36,484 bases of DNA from NCBI GenBank assembly GCA_036584565.1, contig JAZHDF010000097.1:1-36484 (forward strand), in the 5' to 3' direction. The translations under genes and the position numbers were made by a program. The notes under the pieces were generated by a model, which saw nothing but the letters and a program-made list of their open reading frames with translations, did not search any database and was not told the origin of the DNA. Source of the stretch: Candidatus Moraniibacteriota bacterium. GTDB taxonomy: Bacteria; Patescibacteriota; Minisyncoccia; Moranbacterales; UBA9337. Of the stretch, positions 18,089 through 24,487 are shown piece by piece (position 1 is the first letter of the stretch; each line of letters begins with the position of its first letter).

Positions 18089-18111
18089 ATCTTAAACTAT
18101 ATCACATTGAG
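18067..18111. repeat. 45-bp junction direct repeat, copy 2
   Basis: Identical to 17207-17251; spans the stop of gene C, an 8-nt spacer and the start of gene B. Confidence 0.97.
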
Positions 18112-19632
18112 TCCGGTGGGAGAATTGGGGGCACCGATTGTACTTCCGGATAATTCCATCGGGGTTAAACCGTCGGAAAGTTGCCAACCGCGAGAGCCGA
18201 TATATTCCATATATGATTCCTGCAAAACACCTTCTAATTCTATGGAGTCGGTCATGGTTCCGGTGAGATTATCAAGAATTACAACTCTGCTCATATCTAA
18301 TACTTCGGATGTATCCACAGCACTACCGGAGTTATGAATTATTATATTTTCCCCAATGTTAAATGGGCCGTCAGCACTGTCCGTTGTATTGTAAAAATTT
18401 ATCGGCCCCTCGAGAGTGTTTCTGTAAATATCAACGGAACCAACATTAGAGTTCTGATTTAATTCAATAGAGTTTCCGCTAATATTTTTGATATAGTTAT
18501 AGAGGATTTCATATTGACCACCGGAAACAGCTTGACTATTCATATTACCACCAATAGGATGATTAGGAACATTGTAAATATAGTTTCCGCGAACTGTTGG
18601 CCTGATAACATCCTGCTTAAGGGCTATACCTTCAATTGCACCACTTCCTGTCGTGTCGATTATGTCATAAATGATATTATTTTCAATTAACATCTTGGTT
18701 GTTGAATACACCTTAATTGCAGCTCCGTGATTTAAAGTATGCAGCATATTATCTTGTATCACGATATAGTTTTGTTGCGGGCCTTGTGCCCAAAGTCTAA
18801 AAAAAGACTGATTATTAAATCCATCCGTAGGTCCAAGGTCATACAATGTCATGCGTCTATATACAGTCCCGGTTTGATTATTTTGGATTCCATAGCTGGT
18901 CATATTTTTTATAGTTAGACCGTCAATATAAATTCGATTGTCTCCATTTGAGTAAAAAGCAATACTATAAGGCTCTTTTTTAAAATCCAATTCGGGATTT
19001 TCGCCAGGATATGCCAGCCACACCATAGGTTTGTAATTTCCGACAAATGGAACCCATGTTCCATCTTCGATATATGCATCCAGATAATATGTACCTGTCT
19101 TCCAATAGACGAACTCTCCGGGATGATAAGAAATACTCTTTGATGCATAATCATCCCCACCATAAATATCTTTCATGCTTTTCCATGGGTTGTCTTCTTT
19201 GCCGGTGCCACCCTCTGCTATACTTTTTCCGTTTACAGCATCAACAAATAAAAAACCTGAATTTGTTACAGTAATTGTCCAACTCACTGTTTGAATGTTT
19301 GATTCAGAATCAATTACTTGAGCGGTAACGTTATAGGGAGACGCATTTATTATCGGATTTAACCAAGATATTTCTCCGGTTCTTGAATTTATCGTCATTC
19401 CGGAAGGAGCTGTCGTCAAAGAATAGATATAAGGATAAAGTCCTCCTATCACCGCCATTCTGACATTATATTCAAGACCCGGATATGCTTTATAGAATCT
19501 ATTGGTGATATCCAACCCAGCCCGCGGTTGAATTATTTCCAGAGGATAATTGGCAGCTTGAACTTTTTGGGTAGCTAAAAAAAAGCTTAAAGAAAAAAAT
19601 ACTGTAAGGATTATTTTTGTTTTTTTATTCAT
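18097..19632 (-). CDS. Array gene C: secreted putative-Ig plus beta-helix protein
   Basis: Signal peptide, GGLYPYIYSLTTAPSGMTINSRTGEISW, GTGKEDNPWKS, IQDNML/IENNII/VRGNYI, C-terminal SPTGLNVI. Confidence 0.85.
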   Translation of the reverse strand: MNKKTKIILTVFFSLSFFLATQKVQAANYPLEIIQPRAGLDITNRFYKAYPGLEYNVRMAVIGGLYPYIYSLTTAPSGMTINSRTGEISWLNPIINASPYNVTAQVIDSESNIQTVSWTITVTNSGFLFVDAVNGKSIAEGGTGKEDNPWKSMKDIYGGDDYASKSISYHPGEFVYWKTGTYYLDAYIEDGTWVPFVGNYKPMVWLAYPGENPELDFKKEPYSIAFYSNGDNRIYIDGLTIKNMTSYGIQNNQTGTVYRRMTLYDLGPTDGFNNQSFFRLWAQGPQQNYIVIQDNMLHTLNHGAAIKVYSTTKMLIENNIIYDIIDTTGSGAIEGIALKQDVIRPTVRGNYIYNVPNHPIGGNMNSQAVSGGQYEILYNYIKNISGNSIELNQNSNVGSVDIYRNTLEGPINFYNTTDSADGPFNIGENIIIHNSGSAVDTSEVLDMSRVVILDNLTGTMTDSIELEGVLQESYMEYIGSRGWQLSDGLTPMELSGSTIGAPNSPTGLNVI

Positions 19633-19638
19633 ATTTTA

Positions 19639-20278
19639 GTCATAACACCCCCGCCAAAGGCGGTGGCTTGATGAGTAGGGTCGCCTCAAAGGCGACTTTT
19701 ACCATCGTTGGTTAATTAATTGGTTTTTTAGAACTTGTCATCATTCTCATTCTGCTCCCTGATATATTTTTTGATTATTTCTTCATCAAATCCGACTGTT
19801 GATACCGCATAGCCTCGAGCCCAAAAATGTGCTCCGGTGTAATTCCTGTCTTTTCCTTGCATTCGGGCGATTGCGATAGCACTTTTTCCTTTCATAAATC
19901 CTATCACGCTGGCTACGACATATTTGGGAGGAATTTCAATGCACATGTGCACATGGTCTTTGGTGAGATTTCCTTCGGTAATTTTGCTTTCTTTTTGGGT
20001 TGCCAGCTCATGCAGTATCTTTCTGAGCTCTTCTCTGATTTTACCATAAATTATCGCTTTTCTTCTTTTGGGGATGAATATTACGTGATATTTGCAATTC
20101 CATTTTGAATGCGATAAACTTTGATATAGATTAGACATAATTTTGTTTTAATGAACGATGACTTCTCATCAAGCCTAATTCATTTTACATCATTATGTCT
20201 TTTTTTGTGGTTGGGGTATAGGTAAAACCTTTTCGAGTCGCACTAGTGGAACTAGTGGTTTACCTTTTGGGAAAAACT
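19639..20278 (-). mobile_element. IS200/IS605-family element carrying tnpA only (IS200-like)
   Basis: Left-end hairpins GGTAAA..CACTAGT/ACTAGTG..TTTACC (20221-20264); right-end hairpins CCGCC-AAA-GGCGG (19651-19663) and GTCGCC/GGCGAC (19680-19696), ending in TGAC on the minus strand. Exact ends inferred. Confidence 0.85.
19728..20138 (-). CDS. tnpA: IS200/IS605 Y1 (HUH) transposase
   Basis: SLSHSKWNCKYHVIFIPKRR, DHVHM (HUH), KGKSA, HFWARGY, KKYIREQ (catalytic Tyr). Confidence 0.96.
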   Translation of the reverse strand: MSNLYQSLSHSKWNCKYHVIFIPKRRKAIIYGKIREELRKILHELATQKESKITEGNLTKDHVHMCIEIPPKYVVASVIGFMKGKSAIAIARMQGKDRNYTGAHFWARGYAVSTVGFDEEIIKKYIREQNENDDKF

Positions 20279-20280
20279 AA

Positions 20281-21903
20281 TTATAATACATTGAGGCCGG
20301 TGGGAGAATTAGGAGATATAATATCTGTATTTTCTACAAAATTCACAGGCGTAGATCCGTCTCCAAACTGCCAACCGTTATAGCCCAAATATTCACTATA
20401 CCCCAAAGTAAGCAAACCATCAGAATCAATAACTGATGCAATGTTAGTGTTATACAAATTATTTTCATCATTAATACAGGCTCTTCTGGCAATTCTTTGC
20501 TGGGCAGTCATGCCTCCATCGTTATTAAAAGAAAGGAAGTTATAAGTCTCATAAGTTGATGCATTACTATTAGGATTAAGAATAATATTGTCATTTAAAT
20601 AATAAGGACCGGAAAAACTACAATTTTCGGGATTAATAAACCTAAAATAAACATCTTGAGTAACGGTGTTACGCCAAAATTTTACTCTCTTGGTTGTCCC
20701 ACTTTCCGTATACCCCTCCGTATTAGTCTCAAAGGCGGTGGCTCTTTCCGTTGACACTTGTCTATAAAAAAGATTATATAAAATTTCCGTATAGTCAGAA
20801 TTGTATAATCTTGCATTGAGAATGAGGCCTTTATCAACAATAACTTTATTTCCCCTTATTGTCGTGTAACTTAGATTTTCTTTTGGCATAAGAGGATGAT
20901 TGAGTCCGTTAATTCCGGCTCCCCCACTGCTATGAATATAATTGTTTTCAATTAATATCTTATTATGATCATAGAGACTTCCGATTGCCGAGGCTCCTGT
21001 GAAATTAAAAAACTCATTATCTTGAATAACAAAAAAACTCCCAAAAGCCCCGCTTCTACTAAGAAACAAAAAGCCTTGATTTTCATTCACAGTCCTAACG
21101 GCAACTATATTGCTCCAGCTACATCGGCGTATCGTCATATAGCTATTATTATTACCCATAAGCATACCGTAGTCGGAAAAATTTGATAAATTTAATTTAT
21201 CAAAATAAGGTGAAGTTGAGAAAACACTAAATAATCTTTCATCTCCGTCAATATTTACGTCCTCGCCCGGATAACCAAGCCATGTTGCGGGATTGTCATT
21301 GAGATTAGTTGCCGCTTTGCCGGTTATTAACGCAATTTCTGCATTGGGATTGGAATTGTGCGCCGGTAAAATATAATTTCCACCTCGAAAATAAACTATC
21401 CTGGAGTTATCTCCGTTTATTGTTGAACTCAACATACTTAATACAGAACTATACGGCTTCTCAATACTTCCTGTTTCATCCCCCGAATAAGCACTATCTA
21501 CAAAAATAAATCCTTCCTCGGTAACCGCAATCGACCAAGAAGTTTGTACAGTGGTATCTTCCGAATCAGTCACGGATAAAGAAATATTATTTGCATCGGT
21601 TTGCGGATTAGGCCAAGAGATTTCTCCGGTTCTGGGATTGATAGTCATTCCCTCGGGTTGATTGGATAATGAATAGGTGTAAGGATAAGTTCCTCCGATG
21701 ACTGCGGCTCGGATATTGTATTCGATGCCGGGATAAGCCCTGAAAATTCGGTTGGTGGAAGGGATAGCCGGGTCGCCGGTTCCGGCCGGTTTGATGTTAG
21801 TTATCTCCAAAGGAAAGAAAGCGGCTTGGGAAATTTTTGAAAAAATAAAAAGACTTAAGATTAAAAGAAAGGTAGCATAAATTATTTTTGTTTTTTTATT
21901 CAT
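20281..21903 (-). CDS. Array gene D: secreted putative-Ig plus beta-helix protein
   Basis: Same N-terminal Ig block as gene A, TGSIEKPYSS/VYFRGGNY, IQDNEF/IENNYI/IRGNKV, C-terminal SPTGLNVL. Confidence 0.85.
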   Translation of the reverse strand: MNKKTKIIYATFLLILSLFIFSKISQAAFFPLEITNIKPAGTGDPAIPSTNRIFRAYPGIEYNIRAAVIGGTYPYTYSLSNQPEGMTINPRTGEISWPNPQTDANNISLSVTDSEDTTVQTSWSIAVTEEGFIFVDSAYSGDETGSIEKPYSSVLSMLSSTINGDNSRIVYFRGGNYILPAHNSNPNAEIALITGKAATNLNDNPATWLGYPGEDVNIDGDERLFSVFSTSPYFDKLNLSNFSDYGMLMGNNNSYMTIRRCSWSNIVAVRTVNENQGFLFLSRSGAFGSFFVIQDNEFFNFTGASAIGSLYDHNKILIENNYIHSSGGAGINGLNHPLMPKENLSYTTIRGNKVIVDKGLILNARLYNSDYTEILYNLFYRQVSTERATAFETNTEGYTESGTTKRVKFWRNTVTQDVYFRFINPENCSFSGPYYLNDNIILNPNSNASTYETYNFLSFNNDGGMTAQQRIARRACINDENNLYNTNIASVIDSDGLLTLGYSEYLGYNGWQFGDGSTPVNFVENTDIISPNSPTGLNVL

Positions 21904-21925: not shown

Positions 21926-23188
21926 TCAATGCACCGCGCAAGAAATACAGGGATCATAAGCGCGGATGAAACCTCTCAGCTTTTGGGTTCTTTTTTCCTC
22001 CGGCAAATCTTTGACCTTGACCAAATACTCCGCGATGTCATTTTCCAGATGACTCAAAGCCTGGGCGGTAGGAGTGATAATATTGGCATTTTTGATATAG
22101 CCTTTATTGTCGATATCAACATGATAATAAAGCGTCCCGCGAGGCGCTTCCACAGCGGCCACTCCCACTCCTTCCCGCACTTGATATTTTTGCGTCAAGG
22201 CGTTTTCCAAATGCAAATTCCTCAAATTTCTCAAAATACCGATCGATTTCTCGATTGCCAAAATTATTTCCACCATTTGATAACTGACATTATGAAAAGG
22301 ATTGAAATCCGGCATCCGATAGCCCAAAGATTCCAAATAATGCTCGGCTCGCGGAGTAAGTTTTTTATAATTATTATTCATTCTGGCTATCGCTCCGACC
22401 ATATAACTGTTTCGATTCCTTGTCTCCACTCGCTTTACCACCTCATTCGGTTTTTGCAACTCATGAAAATTGTTTTCAAATTTTTCCACCGAAATCTTCA
22501 AACCCCTATTGGATACAATATCTCCTTCGTAAATGGAATAATCTCGTCCATTATTTAAACAAACATATTCCGTCTCCCGGGAAAATTCCGGAAATTTAAA
22601 CCGAGCAAAAAACTCTCCCAGTTTTTCCGCCGTTTCCAAGACTTCAATTCCTCTCTCAATCAATGCTTCGATTTCTTCTTTGGCGGGGACCTTTTTGAAT
22701 CCTCCCACCTCGTTGGTCAGAGGATGAATTACTCTGCCTCCGATTATTTTAACCAGCTCCATTCCAAATTCCCTGATTTTTATCGCCATTTTGGTCTCTT
22801 CAGGATATTGTTCCACCAGTTTTAAATCATTATCGATATCCAAAAGATCGGCCAGAGATAAAAAGAAAAGATGCAGAGCGTGAGAGTGGATAATCTGTCC
22901 CCACTCCAATAATTTGCGAAGCTCCTTGGTTTCGTCAGTAATCGGAACTCGCATCGCTTTTTCAATCGATTTAATGGCTGTCAAATTATGCACTACCGGA
23001 CAAATTCCGCAAATCCGTTGAGCGATAACCGGCATATCGCTATAGTGGCGTCCGATCAAAATTCCCTCGATTAAACGAATTCCCTCTTTGACCTCCAGTT
23101 TGGCGCTTTTAACATCGCCGCTAAGCACACTGGCCATAAAACCGGCATGCCCTTCCATTTTATTGATATGGTTTATTTTTATATTCAT
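21926..23188 (-). CDS. [NiFe]-hydrogenase large (alpha) subunit, group 3b-like
   Basis: KMEGH, L1 RICGICPVVH, HSHALHLFFL, EAPRGTLYYH, L2 DPCISCAVH followed directly by the stop. Confidence 0.95.
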   Translation of the reverse strand: MNIKINHINKMEGHAGFMASVLSGDVKSAKLEVKEGIRLIEGILIGRHYSDMPVIAQRICGICPVVHNLTAIKSIEKAMRVPITDETKELRKLLEWGQIIHSHALHLFFLSLADLLDIDNDLKLVEQYPEETKMAIKIREFGMELVKIIGGRVIHPLTNEVGGFKKVPAKEEIEALIERGIEVLETAEKLGEFFARFKFPEFSRETEYVCLNNGRDYSIYEGDIVSNRGLKISVEKFENNFHELQKPNEVVKRVETRNRNSYMVGAIARMNNNYKKLTPRAEHYLESLGYRMPDFNPFHNVSYQMVEIILAIEKSIGILRNLRNLHLENALTQKYQVREGVGVAAVEAPRGTLYYHVDIDNKGYIKNANIITPTAQALSHLENDIAEYLVKVKDLPEEKRTQKLRGFIRAYDPCISCAVH

Positions 23189-23194
23189 AAATTA

Positions 23195-23705
23195 TCTACA
23201 AAGTACGAATTTTACGAAATTACGAACTTGGTTTTTTAATTTAAATTAACAATTCTTTTAAATTTTACACCTTCTCTTGTGAAGTTGATCAATAATCCCA
23301 ATTTTAATCCTGTTGCCCTCAGATAAGAATAGATCTGATTAATATTTCTTTTTGAAAATCCATTACCCTGCTTTAACTCTATAATTATTATATCTTCATA
23401 TAAAAAATCTAATATATATTCCCCTATTTCCTTATCGTACATTTTAACTTTTAATCTCAATTGCTCCCTAAACTTCTTTTTATTTTTTTCAAATACACCA
23501 GCTACTGCTTTTTGATAAAAACTTTCCTTATGTCCGAATCCTATTTTATCCCAAATACTATACATCATCCCTATAATTTCATATGTTTCATCTGGATAAA
23601 TAATTTCCTTATTGGTTTTCATAAAATTATCCCAAAATAAAGTTTAAAATTCTTGTATATACAATATTTGGATTTCGTAATTTCGTAAAATTCGTAATTC
23701 GTAGA
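23195..23705. mobile_element. Inverted-repeat-bounded unit carrying a GxxExxY gene (putative intervening or mobile element)
   Basis: 32-bp inverted repeats at 23195-23226 and 23674-23705 (inner 23 bp perfect, 2 mismatches in the outer 9), flanked by CATAAATTA / CATAATTA. The repeats are certain; mobility is inferred. Confidence 0.65.
23236..23622 (-). CDS. GxxExxY protein (PD-(D/E)xK nuclease superfamily)
   Basis: GHKESFY (GxxExxY), ILDFLYEDIIIIELK, QIYSYL..TGLKLGLLINF; 128 aa. Confidence 0.93.
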   Translation of the reverse strand: MKTNKEIIYPDETYEIIGMMYSIWDKIGFGHKESFYQKAVAGVFEKNKKKFREQLRLKVKMYDKEIGEYILDFLYEDIIIIELKQGNGFSKRNINQIYSYLRATGLKLGLLINFTREGVKFKRIVNLN

Positions 23706-23710
23706 CATAA

Positions 23711-24487
23711 TTAATCTCCCCTCTCCTCAATATCATCCCTTAAGCCGAAAATTTCCGTCACATTTTCAAACTCTTCATCCGTCATCATTTTTTTCAGAGT
23801 GGCACGCATCGCTTTGACATTACCTTTGGGACGCAATCCGCGACAGCCCTGACAACCCATCCTGGCGGTCGGACAAACCGCATTGCAGCCGCCCAAAATC
23901 ATCGGCCCGAAACAAGGCTTGCCTTCCAAAAGCAGGCATTTGTTTCCTCTGGCTTTGCATTCGACACACACCGGCTGATCCGGTATTTGCGGAATCTCTC
24001 CTTTGAGCAAACTTGGGAAATATTTTAAAAACTCTTCTCCGTCAATCGGACAACCGGGAAAGACAAAATCCACTTTGACAAAATTATCCACTTCTTTGAT
24101 CTCCGGATTATTGATGCCTTGAATGTAACGATAAACATGCTTGATAGTATTTTTACCTTCTTGATAATTTTTGATTTCCGGAATTCCACCCATGGCCGCA
24201 CAATTTCCGATCACCACCAAGAGTTTGCTCCTCTCTCTGATTTTTTTCAGTGTTTCAATATTTCCCTCGGTAATCGGCGTCCCTTCGACAAAAGCGATGT
24301 CCAGTTCCACTCCCGAATCTTCCTGATCCTCTATCATTCCCCAATCCACCATTTCCACCTGCTTAACCACCTCCAAAAAACGCTCACCCAAATCCAAGAG
24401 CGCGAACTGACAACCCTCGCAGGAAGTCAGGCTGACTATGGCAATTTTTGGTTTTTTGTTTTCTTCTTTTTTATTTTCTGTTTCCAT
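23711..24487 (-). CDS. [NiFe]-hydrogenase small (delta) Fe-S subunit, group 3-like
   Basis: LTSCEGC, FVEG, IGNCAAMGG, PGCP, VCVECK, CFGP..GGCNAVCP..GCQGCRG. Confidence 0.93.
   Translation of the reverse strand: METENKKEENKKPKIAIVSLTSCEGCQFALLDLGERFLEVVKQVEMVDWGMIEDQEDSGVELDIAFVEGTPITEGNIETLKKIRERSKLLVVIGNCAAMGGIPEIKNYQEGKNTIKHVYRYIQGINNPEIKEVDNFVKVDFVFPGCPIDGEEFLKYFPSLLKGEIPQIPDQPVCVECKARGNKCLLLEGKPCFGPMILGGCNAVCPTARMGCQGCRGLRPKGNVKAMRATLKKMMTDEEFENVTEIFGLRDDIEERGD

Follow-up and report, generated by a model that had tools for sequence, protein, structure and literature searches.

The contig JAZHDF010000097.1 of a Candidatus Moraniibacteriota bacterium (assembly GCA_036584565.1), which was analysed over its whole length of 36,484 nucleotides (nt) and is called the window here, carries an insert at positions 23192-23709, between the genes for the small and large subunits of a [NiFe]-hydrogenase. 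We interpret this region as a copy of a compact and selfish DNA cassette, the nuclease of which recognizes the units of its own arms, and we give this reading a probability of roughly 0.55. The cassette consists of a gene for a PD-(D/E)xK nuclease of about 125 amino acids (aa), of the GxxExxY family, between inverted arms that each contain about four units of 6-8 nt (TACGAA in the window), and these units would be the recognition sites of the nuclease. The first-pass annotation of this DNA had proposed a small selfish, mobile or intervening unit, and that core idea is supported by relatives with an empty site, a relic solo arm, decayed copies or another nuclease clade at the site, by gene-less hairpins and by the recurrence of the architecture at other loci.

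On the minus strand of the window, the order of genes is small subunit, 128-aa open reading frame (ORF), large subunit. The upstream arm, on the left in gene orientation (23671..23709 (-)), holds four TACGAA units, begins 5 nt past the small-subunit stop codon and matches the nhmmer array model with E 5.8e-11. The nuclease gene (GxxExxY / PDDEXK_3; 23236..23622 (-)) is intact and encodes 128 aa. The downstream, right arm (23192..23230 (-); nhmmer E 4.2e-10) is made of TTCGTA units ending in GTAGA, and 8 nt separate its end from the ATG of the large subunit. The arms form an inverted repeat of 32 nt (23195-23226 / 23674-23705) with 94% complementarity and a distance of 447 nt between the arms; within each arm, three or four TACGAA-like units follow one another. 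The two-unit pattern TACGAANNTACGAA, with at most one mismatch, matches twice in the 36.5-kb window, both times in the arms (expected, 0.18), and two or more matches were obtained in 3 of 100 shuffles of the window. The G+C content in 300-nt windows is 0.25-0.29 in the insert versus 0.42-0.49 alongside. The inverted arms, the identity of the gene between the hydrogenase subunits and the AT-richness had all been described in the first-pass annotation and were all borne out. A promoter and terminator scan of the insert found nothing beyond the shuffle expectation and no promoter-like site on the minus strand inside it, and an Rfam search at E values up to 1 gave no match within 22900-24000.

The hydrogenase small subunit (23711..24487 (-); PF01058, E 3.7e-22) is of the group 3b-like delta type, and the large subunit (21926..23188 (-); PF00374, E 6.8e-31) is of the alpha type. 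Their best NCBIfam matches are NF040836 and NF040832, respectively, both under the model's cut-off; the two proteins resemble sulfhydrogenase delta and alpha most, without reaching the equivalog cut-offs. Downstream of the large subunit, 3 kb from the cassette, the window also encodes an IS200-family TnpA (19728-20138 (-), E 1.4e-39), which lies between two paralogous He_PIG-domain proteins (18097-19632 and 20281-21903).

The 128-aa protein matches TIGR04256 with E 8e-28 and 97.1 bits (cut-off 35) and PF13366 with E 1.5e-26 and 93.4 bits (cut-off 22). These are its only matches in Pfam and NCBIfam, which gave no known-family transposase and no Y1 (HUH) enzyme for it. Searches with PADLOC and, by tblastn, of phage records were negative, and PHROGs gave only weak families whose function is unknown. 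Three of the catalytic residues, E33, D72 and K84, do not vary among 35 sequences, and the fourth, E82, is conserved in at least 90%. The AlphaFold2 model (predicted local distance difference test score 93.2) resembles a minimal PD-(D/E)xK core. The best fold in the PDB is Cas4 SSO0001 (E 1.3e-4, template modelling score 0.59), followed further off by lambda-exonuclease-like enzymes, MGME1, Hjc and EndA, all of them weak matches, and a sequence search of PDB chains found no solved relative (best match CheF, E 0.34). With pN/pS values of 0.194/0.662 against the paralog at locus L002 of the same genome, the gene is, by this measure, under purifying selection. The family profile matches 32,721 protein clusters (50% identity) at E ≤0.001 and 13,813 at E 1e-10. 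When the 150 best family representatives (P0001-P0150) were classified by domain layout, 72 were single-domain proteins of at most 180 aa, 50 were tandem two-domain proteins with a median linker of 20 aa, and 17 had the domain embedded with at least 60 aa on either side. The tandem proteins may represent fused dimers or the read-through of two neighbouring cassettes, and they give a hint that the nuclease is a dimer. A homodimer prediction returned "no answer" (score 0.00 versus a mark of 0.42) and was counted neither way.

The hydrogenase junction was compared among 41 related genomes, 27 of which have the large subunit, with orthologs 65-82% identical; 19 loci besides that of the window were examined, and L009 (contig end) and L011 (Ns) were left unscored. 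The alignment of orthologous loci, which the first-pass annotation had suggested as a check, revealed nine loci (L013, L014, L016-L021 and L023) with an empty spacer of 12-54 nt between the small and large subunits. Empty sites therefore exist, and not all relatives carry the gene. G009 has a 68-nt spacer with a solo right arm 5 nt ahead of the ATG. G002, of the same genus, has an orthologous cassette whose protein is 83% identical, whose arms are of TACGAA/TACTAA type and whose ORF contains an internal stop; an internal stop is also found in the G009 copy. A copy in a related record (L024) is 80% identical and lies at the hydrogenase site as well. In four congeners, the spacer contains unrelated inserts of 89-212 nt, one of which retains TCTCTACGAAAT at its left edge. 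In G023, G034 and G031, the junction is occupied by members of a second GxxExxY clade, which are 27-32% identical to the window's protein, 67-72% identical to one another and accompanied by ATCCGAAT units. The hydrogenase site has thus been colonised by two GxxExxY clades. In two congeners (L008 and L010), we observed a different structured insert of about 200 nt, GTCTTTGCGAG...GGCAATCCA / TGGATTGCC...CTCGCAAAGAC, in the same spacer.

These data bear on a further alternative, namely an ordinary, immobile accessory gene, vertically inherited, between repeats with a regulatory or terminator-like role. Such a gene would account for the G002 ortholog and the L024 copy at the same site, and for the mutual identity of the copies in G023, G034 and G031. 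It does not agree with the empty sites, the relics, the second clade or the gene-less short forms found at many junctions (see below), nor with the patchy distribution of the gene, which is present in 39 of 301 genomes of the phylum, or with its G+C content about 17 points under that of the flanks. We regard vertical inheritance alone as highly improbable.

The first-pass annotation had also pointed to a target-site duplication. The flanks TAATTATG and TAATTTATG are indeed present outside the window arms and give an apparent TAATT(T)ATG duplication, but nothing of the kind recurs at G002 (TAGTTATC / CAAAAAGATG), at paralog L002 or at 23 short forms of G034, whose printed flanks were read by eye; this claim was therefore dropped.

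The window is contig C97 of its genome (G000; 1.15 Mb, 97 contigs, 99.9% complete), which contains three GxxExxY genes. The paralog at L002, between rpsG and fusA, encodes a protein 68% identical to that of the window and has a 35-nt inverted repeat (91%) of TACGAA units. For the third copy, the identity is 28% and the only inverted repeat is a weak one of 14 nt on TTCGAA, so that different units surround different GxxExxY clades within one genome. An nhmmer profile of the four-unit array (consensus TTCGTAAtTTCGTA-tAAA-TTCGTAaTTCGTAGAG) found 19 copies in G000 at E values up to 0.005, four of which bracket the two long, gene-bearing forms. Gene-less inverted pairs of 135-165 nt lie at rpsQ|rplN, at rplN|rplX and upstream of a NifU-like gene, and several solo arms, oriented as ...GTAGAGAAnAAC, stand immediately ahead of the ATG of rpmJ, a ferredoxin gene, pgk, a cofD-like gene and rpsG. 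In an unbiased scan for flanking inverted repeats around the 444 ORFs of 95-175 aa in G000, the window ORF reached a score of 58, the second-highest value (99th percentile, 48). Fifteen ORFs scored at least 36, and this set includes two GxxExxY genes (ranks 2 and 3) and eight 23S_rRNA_IVP genes. At the top of the scan was a 137-aa ORF (G000:C10:3171-3584) with the perfect palindrome GTAATACGAAACTACGGCCGTAGTTTCGTATTAC, which contains TACGAA and CTACG, on both sides.

The rpsG (S7)|fusA junction shows a similar polymorphism among relatives. The spacer is 3-4 nt long (TAAGTTATG) in G023 and G014, is occupied by the long form in G000 and G024, and contains short TACNAA hairpins in G003, G005, G007, G008, G009, G018 and G034; two Saccharibacteria have GxxExxY cassettes there. 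In G001, G002, G004 and G006 (L095, L098, L099 and L102), the spacer holds another array family of about 180 nt, with TAAGAAT / TAGGAAT units on the left and AAAATT-type units on the right. Next to the stop codon, the G001 spacer also retains a remnant, TCTCTACGAAAT, which points to replacement or nesting. In the S17|L14|L24 spacers, G007 is empty and G004 is empty at L14|L24, and the other congeners have three different hairpin families. Generally, the short forms (70-165 nt) lie in operon spacers by start codons and vary between close relatives. We considered whether they are recent internal deletions of the long form and rejected this, as the S7|fusA forms of G005 and G008 share only the arms with G000; their loops have no significant DNA or protein similarity to the G000 long form (best blastx E 0.07-0.3).

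The recurrence at the same junctions is what would be expected of a classical free-standing homing endonuclease gene, whose product cuts the empty intergenic site of a cognate chromosome, so that repair copies the gene into it, with the arms being incidental. S7|fusA is occupied in the Moranbacteria-like G000 and G024 and in the two Saccharibacteria, the hydrogenase junction is occupied in three families, and the domain is inserted at one RecG position in four proteins. A homing endonuclease of the PD-(D/E)xK type, I-Ssp6803I, is known. However, 68%-identical copies with matching arms occupy unrelated sites in one genome; the hydrogenase copy of G000 is closest to the S7|fusA copy of G000 (68%) and not to the S7|fusA copy of G024 (54%). 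Homing also leaves the co-variation of arms and protein and dozens of gene-less hairpins unexplained, and we therefore consider it improbable as the main explanation.

The first-pass annotation had further proposed start-codon contexts as the target of the unit. An ATG does adjoin the right end of many copies, but in-frame copies inside LeuRS, RecG, LepA, GatB and AsnB do not conform to such targeting, and the position by start codons may mirror what selection tolerates.

The architecture recurs across the Patescibacteria. Unit-built arms of about four units tightly bracket the gene in 10 of 11 genome_contigs loci, and the eleventh, which was misparsed, shows a right arm. The gene-bearing genomes of the 301-genome phylum sample have 1-6 copies each; 29 loci were drawn from this sample, and among the 28 that could be analysed, the inverted-repeat score exceeded the maximum of 100 shuffles in 18. 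Among 67 analysable metagenome loci of another clade, an inverted repeat above the shuffle maximum was found in 39 and a direct repeat in 36; the arms of this clade have GGATT/TGATT units and a GTCTGAAC-type end. In metagenomes (L146-L225), at least 562 confirmed stretches belong to one very common GxxExxY clade with 66-76% identity to L036, and GTCTGAACCATGATT...GGATT...GGATT arrays go with it in either orientation. The architecture is less regular in four plasmid examples from other phyla, which have an 11-nt inverted repeat, a direct repeat, a downstream hairpin of 3+3 CGCGGAT and direct AATCC arrays, respectively. The neighbours of the gene are co-oriented with it in 34 of 38 cases upstream and 30 of 33 downstream, and the gaps just fit the arms. 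The flanks of most other GxxExxY genes examined thus carry the tandem-built inverted repeats that the first-pass annotation had suggested looking for.

The unit varies with the protein clade, as TACGAA, TACTAA, TACAAA, TACGGA, TGCGAAT, GCTGAT, CTTGATT or GCTAATT. Among 35 elements, protein identity and the number of shared repeated 6-mers in the arms gave a Spearman coefficient of 0.209, a value that none of 2000 label permutations reached and that relatedness inflates. A shared arm unit was found for 8 of 23 pairs with at least 50% protein identity versus 5 of 112 pairs below 30%. This is the protein/repeat co-variation that the first-pass annotation had suggested testing for. In addition, the arrays occur together with the gene: five or more four-unit TACNAA arrays are present in 17 of 22 gene-bearing relatives versus 1 of 19 gene-free ones, with the reversed pattern as a control giving 0-4 per genome. 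G034 has 75 arrays in all, mostly in hairpins of 71-116 nt. The 302 kb of G034 that were examined contain 61 arrays and 23 strict inverted pairs of 71-116 nt; typically, a stop codon lies immediately left of the pair, and an ATG follows within a few bases on its right.

The arrays might instead be REP/MITE-like repeats (repetitive extragenic palindromes or miniature inverted-repeat transposable elements) that are moved by another enzyme, for example an IS200-like or RAYT-like (REP-associated tyrosine transposase) Y1 transposase, with GxxExxY as a passenger. The TnpA near the window cassette would suit such a role, and the sequence GTAG, in which many arms end, is described in the available sections of PMC3733652 as the tag of REPs associated with RAYTs. 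Y1_Tnp is found in 12 of 18 array-rich versus 3 of 23 array-poor relatives, which makes it a weaker correlate than GxxExxY, and G039 has 13 arrays and Y1-like genes and no GxxExxY gene. On the other hand, six array-rich genomes have no Y1 match, the unit tracks the GxxExxY clade, several unit types coexist in one genome, and the palindromes around the RAYT-like gene of G000 are different ones of its own. A foreign enzyme is, in our judgement, slightly less probable still than homing. The G000 gene just mentioned (L144:546-1259, i.e., G000:C8:1545-2258) encodes 237 aa with weak Y1_Tnp / REP_Tyr_transpos matches; it is flanked by GGAGACTAAGTCCCCAATTGGGGACTTAGTCTCC-type palindromes, and related palindromes occur in frame inside its own ORF.

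Two mechanisms had been offered at the outset for the arms, which could be binding sites for the nuclease or could pair in the mRNA. In the second case, the cassette would be an RNA-level intervening sequence (IVS), in which the arms pair in the polycistronic transcript and RNase III cuts the stem and frees the nuclease mRNA and the downstream start codon, as in the IVSs of 23S rRNA, with the nuclease as cargo or serving only the spread at the DNA level. The predicted fold of a 541-nt transcript pairs the arms over about 33 bp in both the minimum-free-energy and the centroid structure (z -3.95), the genome encodes an RNase III, and the insert lacks a promoter-like site on the minus strand. In Coxiella, the IVS has a 28-bp terminal stem that is cut by RNase III, as reported in the available part of PMC4990558.

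However, the arms of the short forms are systematically mismatched. In the 23 hairpins of G034, the fourth base of the unit agrees between the arms in only 21 of 92 cases (43% expected), 60 of the 92 being G against T. One of the 23 has a complementary central spacer, whereas the units keep their constant parts. The units thus appear to matter more than the stem in these hairpins. The short forms of G002 and G006 combine a TACGAAT arm with a TACTAAT arm, and arrays in direct orientation also occur outside the Patescibacteria. Furthermore, cassettes with translated arms are found in frame in a 1206-aa LeuRS (leucyl-tRNA synthetase) of G018 (L228:2384-6004 (+)) and an 848-aa RecG of G040 (L229:1363-3909 (-)), where cutting of a stem would destroy an essential mRNA. 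Other host proteins also hold the GxxExxY domain internally: it lies inside a host protein in eight of ten long representatives (P0044, P0070, P0084, P0096, P0133, P0058, P0079 and P0088), namely three RecG, AsnB, LepA, two GatB and a glycosyltransferase, and the remaining two (P0145 and P0021) have only a PDDEXK_3 match. The insertion in RecG is at one position in all four proteins. Neither the LeuRS and RecG fusions nor the ten further representatives scanned have a Hint/intein domain listed. The G018 LeuRS also has an internal Ser_hydrolase domain. Because stem cutting in the mRNAs of in-frame hosts would be harmful, we ranked the reading of the units as binding sites at the DNA level first. 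The evidence leans towards the units as putative binding sites, and the pairing of arms in RNA is the less favoured of the two proposed mechanisms. An IVS-like RNA role for the arms is possible, with the mismatched short forms and the in-frame copies arguing against it as a general function; as the full explanation, the RNA-level alternative is unlikely, although it is the strongest of the competing ones.

Some of what favours the RNA-level alternative comes from a second group of genes. G000 has 13 matches to 23S_rRNA_IVP, 12 of them above the cut-off (contigs C40, C84, C26, C34, C91, C69, C27, C82, C54 and C22; loci L084-L093). Among the 11 IVP genes examined, eight are bracketed by inverted repeats above the shuffle maximum that are built from tandem units of their own. 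One of these G000 cassettes lies inside the 23S rRNA, and others lie at pheS|pheT and upstream of a tmk-like gene, two junctions that hold GxxExxY cassettes in other genomes. GxxExxY and IVP cassettes look like two cargo types of one cassette grammar. A search for GxxExxY inside rRNA found none among the 19 other loci scanned. A paper on rRNA insertions in the Candidate Phyla Radiation lists LAGLIDADG, GIY-YIG and 23S_rRNA_IVP, and the term "PDDEXK" occurs 0 times in the main text available.

We return to the compact selfish cassette as the preferred reading. The nuclease, probably as a dimer or higher oligomer, would bind the units at both ends and cut there, and host replication or repair would complete the movement or copying. 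Gene-less hairpins with cognate arms would be non-autonomous, MITE-like derivatives, and solo right arms would survive as a leader just ahead of the downstream start codon. The cassette would have no promoter of its own and be read with the host operon, and it would persist where it does little harm, i.e., in the short gap that separates a stop codon from the following start codon or as an in-frame loop of a protein. The comparisons show the architecture and how general it is, the presence/absence polymorphism, the co-variation of unit and protein clade, the joint occurrence of arrays and gene and the purifying selection, whereas we infer the binding of the units, the action on DNA and every step of the movement.

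Several observations weigh against this reading. Movement has been deduced from comparative patterns, and a search of public runs found one DNA run, probably the source of G000 and kept as contigs, and no RNA run. Neither joints nor an empty-site variant occur in these contigs, whose loose ends at the arms trace to other array copies, and the run is uninformative on expression or excision. To our knowledge, a PD-(D/E)xK nuclease alone is incapable of strand transfer, and no target-site duplication was seen either, so that the reading offers no account of insertion. The arms of the long forms are highly complementary and paired in the predicted RNA fold, and one spacer position differs on both arms between G000 and G002; these features fit selection on a stem or gene conversion between the arms. 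No inverted repeat above the shuffle maximum was found in 10 of the 28 phylum loci and 28 of the 67 metagenome loci. G039 has its arrays without a GxxExxY gene, five gene-bearing genomes have fewer than five arrays, and the association of arrays and gene is confounded by shared ancestry. Finally, the IVP protein is Avd-like, a four-helix protein and not a nuclease, so a nuclease is inessential to the cassette grammar, and these nuclease-free cassettes lowered our confidence in the mechanism.

Compared with known systems, the cassette works most like a RAYT-REPIN system (in which REPs form paired hairpins) or a MITE with its autonomous partner, and looks most like an rRNA IVS. With RAYT and REP-REPIN, as described in the available sections of PMC3733652, it shares a single small nuclease-type gene between inverted cognate repeats and many gene-less intergenic hairpins. 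However, its enzyme is not a Y1 HUH nuclease, its arrays consist of four short units and not of one G+C-rich palindrome, and its gene is multi-copy and polymorphic in position. The Correia/nemis elements of Neisseria are an example of MITEs. Like these, the cassette has short forms of 70-165 nt with terminal inverted repeats, located in operon spacers by start codons and variable between close relatives, and it has multiple copies with insertion polymorphism among relatives; unlike them, it shows no target-site duplication, its arms are built of tandem units, and its candidate autonomous partner has no DDE transposase. Homing endonuclease genes and inteins are similar in that the same conserved junctions repeatedly hold a small nuclease gene and that relatives lie in frame in RecG, LeuRS, LepA, GatB and AsnB, but the cassette has inverted arms and gene-less derivatives, and no Hint domain is listed in the fusions. 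Rickettsia palindromic elements are palindromic repeats that are tolerated in frame within protein genes and encode no enzyme, whereas the loop of the cassette is a folded nuclease domain. The rRNA IVSs, according to the part of PMC4990558 available, are about 0.4-0.5 kb long, have one small ORF in the loop of a long stem, are A+T-richer than the host and sporadic, and have no explained origin; the cassette resembles them in these respects, and its 32-nt terminal inverted repeat is predicted to form a long stem in the transcript. It differs in lying between protein genes and not in rRNA, in encoding a PD-(D/E)xK nuclease and not a four-helix bundle, and in having arm units that co-vary with the protein.

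We found no prior description of the cassette in open-access papers and bioRxiv (subscription journals were outside the scope of this search), and none of the papers found there that name the GxxExxY family is about repeats or mobility. A broader proposal, which we put forward tentatively and hold to be somewhat less probable than the reading of the window itself, is that the GxxExxY nucleases are the hallmark of a mobile element of a new class that is very widespread among prokaryotes. Its sole gene would be that of the ~125-aa PD-(D/E)xK nuclease between arrays of its own recognition units; it would spawn MITE-like hairpins and lie silent in operon spacers or in frame inside essential proteins (RecG, LeuRS, LepA and GatB), and it would have its grammar in common with the rRNA IVSs, which would then form one branch of this type of element. 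GxxExxY / PDDEXK_3 is a large family without a known function, and the link to the cassette gives it a testable role. If the units are sites of the nuclease, the clades would be a natural series of small DNA-binding nucleases with specificities of 6-7 nt. The cassette may also explain the origin of many short intergenic hairpins in the ultra-small genomes of Patescibacteria and the odd internal domains of core genes there, as well as what rRNA intervening sequences are.

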